A DNA stretch of 64,000 nucleotides from a virus, in IMG/VR virus record IMGVR_UViG_3300011113_000747, positions 1 to 64,000 of that record; one strand, 5' to 3'. Positions 2,809 to 4,044 of this stretch are shown piece after piece. The position numbers and the translations under genes are program-made. Within the stretch, counting starts at the first letter, position 1; each line of letters starts with the position of its first letter. A model generated the notes under the pieces. The model was not told where the DNA came from. It searched no databases and saw only the letters and a list, made by a program, of their open reading frames with translations.

Positions 2809-2849
2809 GCACGAAGTGTCACTAAAAGGAAAGTTAATATAATATTATT

Positions 2850-3110
2850 ATGAAAGAAATAATTTTAATTAATGGTGAGAATAAAGTTTTAGGTGTGTGG
2901 GTGGGTGTGTGGGGAGAGAAAATATGGAATGAGATTAATGAGGAGTGTGAGGTGGGAATGGAGTTTGGGGAGTGGAGTGAGGGAGAGGAGAGAGGTGATG
3001 GGTGGAAGATTTATGAGAGTGATGGTATGGGTGTGTTGGTGGTTGATGAGGGGAGGGATTGGAAAAAATGTAAGAAAGAGTATTGGGGGATGGTGTTAAG
3101 AAAATATTAA
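2850..3110 (+). CDS. Cytosine-free early gene, Glu/Trp/Gly-rich protein
   Basis: Promoter motif; no C in the ORF; protein lacks A, P, T, Q, H. Confidence 0.8.
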   Translation: MKEIILINGENKVLGVWVGVWGEKIWNEINEECEVGMEFGEWSEGEERGDGWKIYESDGMGVLVVDEGRDWKKCKKEYWGMVLRKY

Positions 3111-3150
3111 TTTAATTGAGAGCTTTTAGGAAAGTTAATATAATATTAAT

Positions 3151-3351
3151 ATGAAAATCATCGAAATTAATGTTGCTGAGAAGAGTGTTAAGATTGAGTA
3201 TGTGGGTAAAGAAAGGTTAGTGACTTTTAGTGATAATGGTGATATTGATGTTGAGCCTTTTGGTGACTTGAGTGATTGTGAAAGTGAAGTGTTGTTTGAT
3301 AGTATTTTGAATAGTGAAGAGATTAATTGTGCTCTTCCTTTTGAAGACTAA
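3151..3351 (+). CDS. C-poor acidic early protein
   Basis: Promoter motif; 12 C in 201 nt. Confidence 0.8.
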   Translation: MKIIEINVAEKSVKIEYVGKERLVTFSDNGDIDVEPFGDLSDCESEVLFDSILNSEEINCALPFED

Positions 3352-3431
3352 AAGAGAATTTGAGATAAGGCAGCAGGGTGAAAGCTCTGCTGCCTCCTCC
3401 CGTCGCTAAGGAAAATTAATATAATATTATT

Positions 3432-3713
3432 ATGCAAGAAATTAAAAATTATAATGGGCTTAGCAATGATGAAGAGGTGGAGTTGCTTAATGAGATGGTG
3501 GGTGAAATGTGTGATGAGTATGGTGATGGTTTGATTGGTTTGAGTGAGTTGGTGAGTGTGATTTGTGGTAAAGAGTTTTATAATAAGTATGATGATGAAG
3601 ATTTGGATTATGTGAAAGAGGTGATGAGGGAGTTTTGTAGGGTGAATGTGGAGTTTAATTTGGAGAATGAAGATGTGTATTTGGTGAGTTTTGTGGATGA
3701 AGATGAGGAGTGA
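3432..3713 (+). CDS. Nearly C-free, highly acidic early protein
   Basis: Promoter motif; only 4 C, all within the first 55 nt. Confidence 0.8.
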   Translation: MQEIKNYNGLSNDEEVELLNEMVGEMCDEYGDGLIGLSELVSVICGKEFYNKYDDEDLDYVKEVMREFCRVNVEFNLENEDVYLVSFVDEDEE

Positions 3714-3745
3714 AAAGGGAGAGGGAAAATTAATATAATATTAGT

Positions 3746-3988
3746 ATGAAAGAAATGAAAGTTAATATTGAAAATAAAGTTGTTGGAATTTTGGATGAAG
3801 ATAATGTTTTGGGGTTTGTGGAAGTGAATGAAGATGTGAAAGATTTGTGGAATGGTTGTTTGGTTGTTGAGAGTGGGAAGTATGGTTATATGGATGATAT
3901 GGTGGTGTTTGTTGGTGATAGTGAAGATGAAGTGAAGAAGGAAGTGAAAGAATTTTTGAAGAAAGAGATTGAAGAAAGAGATTGGTGA
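3746..3988 (+). CDS. Cytosine-free acidic early protein
   Basis: Promoter motif; no C; shares ENKV(L/V)G with ORF 2850. Confidence 0.8.
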   Translation: MKEMKVNIENKVVGILDEDNVLGFVEVNEDVKDLWNGCLVVESGKYGYMDDMVVFVGDSEDEVKKEVKEFLKKEIEERDW

Positions 3989-4044
3989 GGGGTGTGGAGG
4001 GGAGAGGTGGAAGGATAAGAAAGGAAAATTAATATAATAACTTT

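Follow-up and report, generated by a model that had tools for sequence, protein, structure and literature searches.

Why would a phage write part of its early region without one of the four bases? The window analyzed here, i.e., the first 64 kb of a 184,542-bp IMG/VR virus record with terminal repeats, contains no cytosine (C) on its + strand from 2823 to 3122 (300 nt) and from 3487 to 4040 (554 nt). Both runs had been pointed out in a sequence-only reading of this DNA, and base counts across the genome confirmed them: the next longest C-free run anywhere in the 184,542 bp is 64 nt, and no A-, G-, or T-free run of comparable length occurs in the whole genome.

Judged from its genes, the virus is a deep-branching T4-like phage, which encodes a T4-type portal (only 31% identical to those of cultured phages) and NrdA/B. 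Its early region consists of approximately 60 one-gene units with the arrangement GGAA-N6-TATAAT-N6-ATG, at genome positions 145–184 kb and 0–7 kb (window 110–6900), and this layout looks like one of leaderless starts. Only four of these units are depleted in C, and the other ~56 hold 10–33% C. Units of this layout were absent from the four IMG/VR genomes with 57–60% portal identity, suggesting that these phages differ in host or in promoter system. In the ORF list, a common MTRKDINLLAEA leader opens several neighboring genes at window 8021–9041.

Composition of the C-free tracts and their genes

The features of the C-depleted cassette are as follows.

2823–3122, + strand: C-free tract 1 (300 nt), containing a promoter, ORF 2850–3110, and a spacer
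2828–2849, + strand: early promoter GGAA-N6-TATAAT-N6, ending at the ATG (leaderless type)
2850–3110, + strand: ORF 2850, 86 aa, 0 C, without Ala, Pro, Thr, His, or Gln; confident predicted fold (pLDDT 81)
3129–3150, + strand: early promoter of the middle gene (ORF 3151)
3151–3351, + strand: ORF 3151, 66 aa, 6.0% C; its homolog in locus L020 has 14.6% C
3369–3394, + strand: G+C stem-loop GGCAGCAG...CTGCTGCC, PeSL-like, directly 5′ of the ORF 3432 promoter
3410–3431, + strand: early promoter of ORF 3432
3432–3713, + strand: ORF 3432, 93 aa, acidic, 4 C, all within the first 55 nt; pLDDT 84
3487–4040, + strand: C-free tract 2 (554 nt), containing most of ORF 3432, ORF 3746, two promoters, and spacers
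3724–3745, + strand: early promoter of ORF 3746
3746–3988, + strand: ORF 3746, 80 aa, acidic, 0 C
4023–4044, + strand: early promoter of ORF 4045
4045–4200, + strand: ORF 4045, 51 aa, basic, normal composition (14% C), the last gene of the unit
4223–4253, + strand: intrinsic terminator closing the unit

The four Cs of ORF 3432 are at +4, +30, +34, and +55, and the gene is C-free from codon 19. Most of the Cs that separate the two tracts lie in ORF 3151 and in the stem-loop, which received no intrinsic terminator score because a T tail is absent. Tract 2 is ended by a C at 4041, within the N6 spacer of the ORF 4045 promoter.

Within the tracts, serine is encoded only by AGT, leucine only by TTA or TTG, and arginine only by AGA or AGG, as the sequence-only reading had stated, and the third base of NNY codons is T without exception. 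The C contents that it had given for the ORFs were likewise correct (0 in 2850–3110 and 3746–3988; 6.0% in 3151–3351). Relative to codon usage in 46 early genes of normal composition, the avoidance of C in synonymous choice had P ~1e-37, and the absence of Ala, Pro, Thr, His, and Gln from the tract-encoded protein had P ~1e-21. The non-coding bases follow the same rule, with 0 C in 123 nt versus 12.6% C in the other early spacers (P ~1e-7). Because the non-coding DNA also lacks C, causes at the level of translation, such as tRNA supply or queuosine decoding of NAU codons, were ruled out. The sequence-only reading had further described a change of the promoter to a C-free form. This was overstated: the C-free spacers AGTTAA and AATTAA also precede genes of normal composition, so the apparent change is normal variation.

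The proportion of G is 0.35–0.38 inside the tracts versus 0.22–0.27 outside, and that of T is unchanged. Third-position G in the C-free genes (0.32–0.46) is close to the third-position G+C of normal genes (about 0.4); thus, the density of G:C pairs is the usual one, with every G placed on the sense strand. This composition bears on the possibility of C-to-T hypermutation, bisulfite-like conversion, or an assembly artifact. A single-strand deaminase does yield a strand-specific loss of one base. However, deamination predicts that the lost C becomes T, whereas here G is raised and T is not; no frame is broken at former CAA, CAG, or CGA codons, and the three frames of 80–93 codons are intact, even though no stop codon contains a C; and assemblies made independently from many samples agree on a state that outlasts more than 30% nucleotide divergence. 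Composition and conservation therefore refute this explanation, and we give it practically no weight.

The encoded proteins gave few clues to their function. No family match was found for the cassette proteins in Pfam or PHROGs, an Rfam search gave no match, and no normal-composition paralogs of the cassette genes exist within the genome. The two confident models (ORF 3432 and ORF 2850) had no significant match of any kind in a Foldseek search of the PDB; that of ORF 3432 has a weak, non-significant likeness to winged-helix domains. The suggestion that the proteins are distinctive in being acidic and resemble DNA mimics was not borne out, either by these searches or by their charge: their pI is 4.05–4.6, and among the 46 normal early proteins, 35% are likewise below pI 4.5.

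A further consequence of the composition is seen in the messages, which by prediction are almost unstructured. The folding energy of the C-free messages is −3.1 and −6.3 kcal/mol per 100 nt, compared with −23.5 ± 3.0 in 46 normal early messages. It could be supposed that an unstructured message is the selected trait, allowing efficient leaderless translation or escape from the sensing of double-stranded RNA. However, the loss of G would serve this purpose equally well or better, yet C alone is missing; the ~56 leaderless siblings fold normally; and neither the strictness at each site nor the C-free spacers are explained. We consider this explanation very improbable.

Conservation of the C-free state among related early genes

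The families of ORF 2850, ORF 3432, and ORF 3746 were compared with neighboring families over the same divergence. Homologs of the three genes have 0–1.5% C down to 38% protein identity, with one exception, the relaxed ORF 3432 homolog in L016, whereas the neighboring families hold 12–19% C in both genomes. The composition class is inherited family by family across 38–78% identity. For ORF 3746, a homolog with 93% identity (P0001) has 0 C in the gene in three independent assemblies (L009–L011), in which the only nearby Cs occupy one fixed promoter position, and a homolog with 71% identity (P0002) is also without Ala, Pro, Thr, His, and Gln. (Positions 1–52 of L011, a public metagenome contig, are Illumina adapter and not phage DNA.) Six homologs of ORF 2850 with 74–85% identity (P0010–P0015) have 3–4 C per 258 nt (≤1.5% C) and form islands amid genes of normal composition, and a homolog with 38% identity in L075 has 0 C. 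Homologs of ORF 3432 were found in 28 metagenome loci with 46–62% identity, and most of them have 0 C.

The sequence-only reading had proposed examining whether the absence of C is kept in homologs while the A, G, and T sites vary, and the answer was positive. ORF 3432 of the window and its homolog in L015 differ at 77 of 249 nt, and C is involved in only 2 of these differences; compared with the relaxed homolog in L016, there are 88 differences, 20 of them with C. These alignments show that purifying selection keeps the transcription units C-free on the sense strand and that it acts site by site. ORF 3151, whose family has normal composition in L020 and is C-poor here inside the cassette, points to a rule of the cassette and not of the protein.

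The genes belong to a mobile class of very small early genes, every one of which has a promoter to itself. The ORF 3746 homolog in L009 has other C-free genes as neighbors, and the homologs of ORF 2850, ORF 3151, and ORF 3432 are dispersed in L020. The early region of L020 also contains stretches of ~100 nt composed only of A and T, with neither C nor G (4636–4742, 5810–5915, and 7629–7741). Several lineages of the ORF 3432 family have kept Thr codons close to the 5′ end of the gene, together with a C at +4 (ATGCAA). The C-free state often begins inside the gene in this family (3432–3486 of the window precedes it), the 5′ parts being variable and C-containing, and one homolog (L017:285–692) has a 64-codon N-terminal extension of normal composition; this within-gene onset suggests recombination breakpoints inside the gene. 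Searches of IMG/VR with single proteins and family alignments found no relatives, no ORF 3432 homolog was found in cultured phages, and BLASTN of the locus against phages gave no match. A search with the 800-aa protein of the L020-type phage found no complete relatives of it, and the sigma-factor gene of L012 gave no useful taxonomy.

The C-free arrays of the relatives are larger than that of the window, with exactly zero C across 1.4–2.4 kb. In L067, 2402 nt with ten genes have zero C, and the entire 1676-nt contig L071 is C-free. L075:2322–5828 and L073:234–3847 each contain a convergent pair of arrays with 13–14 tiny genes in total, five in one orientation and eight or nine in the other, and every gene is preceded by TTGATT-N17-TATATT-N7-ATG. 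C is absent from the sense strand of each array. The two arrays are separated by a region of normal composition that contains three TTTGAACAC repeats and a terminator with a strong hairpin, and only in this inter-array terminator region do G and C coexist. These convergent arrays indicate that the rule follows transcription and not the replication or packaging strand. The carriers have at least three promoter types, with the leader absent or almost absent, and the missing letter is always C, here and in the relatives examined.

A bias that tracks the direction of transcription (L075 and L073) brings to mind the evasion of Rho, which loads on C-rich, G-poor RNA, so that a C-free, G-rich transcript would be immune to premature termination. 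Rho targets contain more C than G, and the purine bias of sense strands serves to avoid Rho (PMC13323073); in the genome studied here, G already exceeds C in the normal early genes. However, Rho needs many Cs (in a Bacillus subtilis assay, an excess of C extending over >150 nt; PMC13323073), so selection should fade at low C, whereas the arrays show zero C over 1.4–2.4 kb and no gradation, and T is not lowered. The genes are also only 150–280 nt long with a promoter each, and the sibling units are unconstrained. Rho evasion therefore seems quite improbable.

The same arrays bear on the possibility that a C-free message escapes endoribonucleases that need C (MazF-family toxins, or other toxin or CRISPR-accessory RNases) and that the proteins are toxin inhibitors. 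To our knowledge, nearly all characterized MazF motifs contain C. ACA-less mRNAs survive MazF, some of the messages here have no C from start to stop, and the varied, tiny, and often acidic proteins would match the diversity of toxin–antitoxin systems. However, motifs of 3–7 nt would not demand the loss of every C, let alone from 2402 nt, and Cs in spacers and promoters, which are harmless to translation, are nonetheless avoided. We regard this explanation as unlikely, although less so than Rho evasion.

The complete lack of C across kilobases, even in spacers, suggests a process for which a single site counts and in which a stalled polymerase harms the entire array. The C-free spacers and internal promoters fit polymerase stalling better than RNA cleavage, and this logic disfavors Rho, motif-reading RNases, and the avoidance of structure alike.

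Guanine modification genes and the template strand

A C-free sense strand is a G-free template strand, here across the whole transcription unit, and the phage carries genes that act on guanine.

23088–23900, + strand: DpdA3-type DNA guanine transglycosylase (49.6% identity to DpdA of phage immuto, 47% to that of CP220)
25007–25921, + strand: QueF (preQ0 to preQ1)
46347–47123, − strand: QueE-like radical-SAM gene (weak Pfam match; 58–65% identical homologs in relatives)
47913–48599, − strand: QueD (PTPS)
48741–49352, + strand: FolE (GTP cyclohydrolase I)
76797–77426 of the genome, beyond the window: QueC

With this full DpdA3/FolE/QueD/QueE/QueC/QueF set, it is probable that all G in the phage DNA is exchanged for a 7-deazaguanine. 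In phages with DpdA3 (immuto, phiST, and CP220), the replacement of G is described as complete (PMC10516641); in immuto, the substitute is a preQ1 derivative. Two genes lie between DpdA and QueF (window 23897–24999), which the sequence-only reading had taken for a GNAT and a kinase; such a pair would hint that the preQ1 derivative made here is not formyl-preQ1. The second of them (24439–24999) adjoins QueF in all four relatives, each of which has a distant second copy near QueE.

In the Flavobacterium phage immuto, the gene gp143 (NC_055915.1:68330–68686; L042:831–1187) has 5 C in 357 nt, and its neighbors are normal. It encodes an acidic protein of 118 aa annotated as hypothetical, and its C-free run starts directly 3′ of the −7 promoter box. 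Immuto differs from the phage studied here in both the phylum of its host and the type of promoter.

We tentatively favor the following reading, which we consider the most probable of those weighed here, although less likely than not, ahead of ddhCTP or CTP shortage, C-reading RNases, Rho evasion, and message structure, in that order: the template is kept free of modified G, and hence RNA polymerase does not stall on it. The likeliest hit would lie in the DNA, and most probably one hit at any such site would stall RNA polymerase and jam the dense array. A G-free template would contain no modified base from which anti-7-deazaguanine defenses, e.g., the Dag DNA glycosylases, could produce abasic sites or nicks, nor would it present any other modified-base block to the polymerase. 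Transcription of the cassette would then continue even as other parts of the genome are attacked, and its small proteins would be a first-response counter-defense arsenal.

In favor of the template reading are the full preQ1/DpdA3 gene set here and the nearly C-free gp143 in the fully G-modified immuto. Abasic sites and nicks block bacterial RNA polymerase when they are on the template strand but not when they are on the other strand. The host glycosylases that excise 7-deazaguanines, thereby breaking such DNA, are diverse and numerous (bioRxiv 10.1101/2025.10.29.685425). Bacterial RNA polymerase is impeded in vitro by 7-substituted 7-deazaguanines during initiation and not during elongation (PMC4838386). 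As the sibling genes also use C freely, the version in which the modified base itself is unreadable is unlikely, and only the version involving damage is attractive.

Several results count against the template reading. The ~56 units that share the promoter contain C at the usual levels, and the sense strand, with 35–41% G and no avoidance of third-position G, would be heavily attacked. Furthermore, no C-poor or G-poor tract was found in the four relatives with DpdA, QueF, FolE, QueD, and QueE (G001–G004; 131–199 kb; G001 is 91% complete), and no comparable tract in the cultured phages with DpdA homologs, CP220, phiST, and MA9V-3; these seven genomes indicate that G modification is not sufficient. 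The flanks of the metagenome carriers contain no 7-deazaguanine genes, but these contigs are short and uninformative either way.

The same per-site logic, tied to the direction of transcription, would apply if the costly element was the C in the message. The sequence-only reading had interpreted the cassette as counter-defense genes written without C, in which each C would be a stall or stop under ddhCTP, the chain terminator made by viperin, or under CTP shortage. Stalled polymerases would also account for the C-free spacers, and the constant identity of the missing letter agrees with this interpretation. The effect of prokaryotic viperins, however, has been demonstrated on T7 RNA polymerase. 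Although ddhCTP is a documented antiviral chain terminator, most phages, including the T4-likes, rely on the host RNA polymerase, and bacterial viperins are often promiscuous (also producing ddhUTP and ddhGTP) and rarer in prokaryotes than viperins are in eukaryotes (bioRxiv 10.1101/2023.09.13.557418). The top-ranked literature matches included no CTP-depleting defense.

The claim that the messages can be made without CTP stands for ORFs 2850 and 3746, which lack C from start to stop, but not for ORF 3151 or ORF 3432; in the latter, the conserved C at +4 and the 5′ Thr codons mean that strict CTP independence fails. Similarly, the selection for the absence of C that the viperin interpretation requires is real, but the interpretation itself received no direct support, and the siblings with the same promoter use C normally. 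Given the probable replacement of G by a 7-deazaguanine, the absence of G on the template strand is an equally good reading of the absence of C. A shortage or poisoning of CTP also leaves the arrays of 13–14 different proteins without a reason and fails to account for two unrelated phages having G-modification genes alongside the C-poor ones. We consider it doubtful, although more plausible than the RNase explanation.

Returning to the template reading, a more general proposal, which we hold slightly more tentatively still, is that base-replacing phages write their swappable first-response genes with a template that lacks the replaced base, so that the polymerase would not stall in these units and their expression would continue under attack. 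If this is true, the price is a natural three-letter gene code, with proteins made from 15 amino acids.

Comparison with known systems

No published natural C-free genes were found in the literature, where the searches yielded only synthetic C-less cassettes, nor was any description found of natural three-base genes that are kept so by selection and encode folded proteins. The existence of such genes shows that, during infection, one C in the message (or one G in the template) is so costly that whole proteins are reshaped to avoid it. The process responsible, once identified, would expose either a further, new level of conflict about modified phage DNA or a widespread defense directed at cytidine. 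The cassettes mark out a set of probable counter-defense proteins, which are at the same time a natural case of reduced-alphabet protein design (~15 amino acids), and gp143 of immuto is usable as a laboratory model.

PeSL cassettes are not known to depart from an ordinary base composition. They share with the units described here small early genes of no known function in a variable genome region, a repeated early promoter before each small gene (~60 units here), and gene content that is shuffled between relatives (L009 and L020) (T4-type phages; PMC2839356, PMC4122927). The PeSL stem-loop is found here before one promoter (3369–3394) and before none of the in-tract promoters, which cannot form G–C stems. 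Three features found here are not contained in the description of PeSL: one nucleotide is excluded altogether, the proteins use only 15 letters, and the layout is the leaderless GGAA-N6-TATAAT-N6-ATG.

Synthetic C-less and G-less cassettes for in vitro transcription are man-made and non-coding. As here, one nucleotide is missing and the transcript can be completed without the corresponding NTP, but the stretches analyzed in this study are natural, conserved, and encode predicted folded proteins. In the single-protein-production system, which is engineered, ACA is removed by synonymous changes only. Its MazF-proof messages resemble the cassette in being purged of an element that an attack needs, so that they alone stay expressed; here, in contrast, a whole base is removed, spacers included, and five amino acids are lost. 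Ugi, p56, and Ocr are small acidic early inhibitors of host enzymes that attack DNA. The cassette proteins share their size, charge, and early expression, together with the idea of an inhibitor needed before the modified genome is destroyed, but they have no similarity to them in sequence or fold, and acidity is common among the neighboring genes.

The DpdA3 hypermodification of immuto, phiST, and CP220 involves the same gene set as that found here; the passages of PMC10516641 retrieved by keyword do not mention strand-specific avoidance of G. Finally, the purine bias that avoids Rho has in common with the C-free genes an excess of G over C tied to the direction of transcription, but that bias is genome-wide and mild (54% versus 46% purines; PMC13323073), whereas the bias described here is absolute and limited to a small number of genes.
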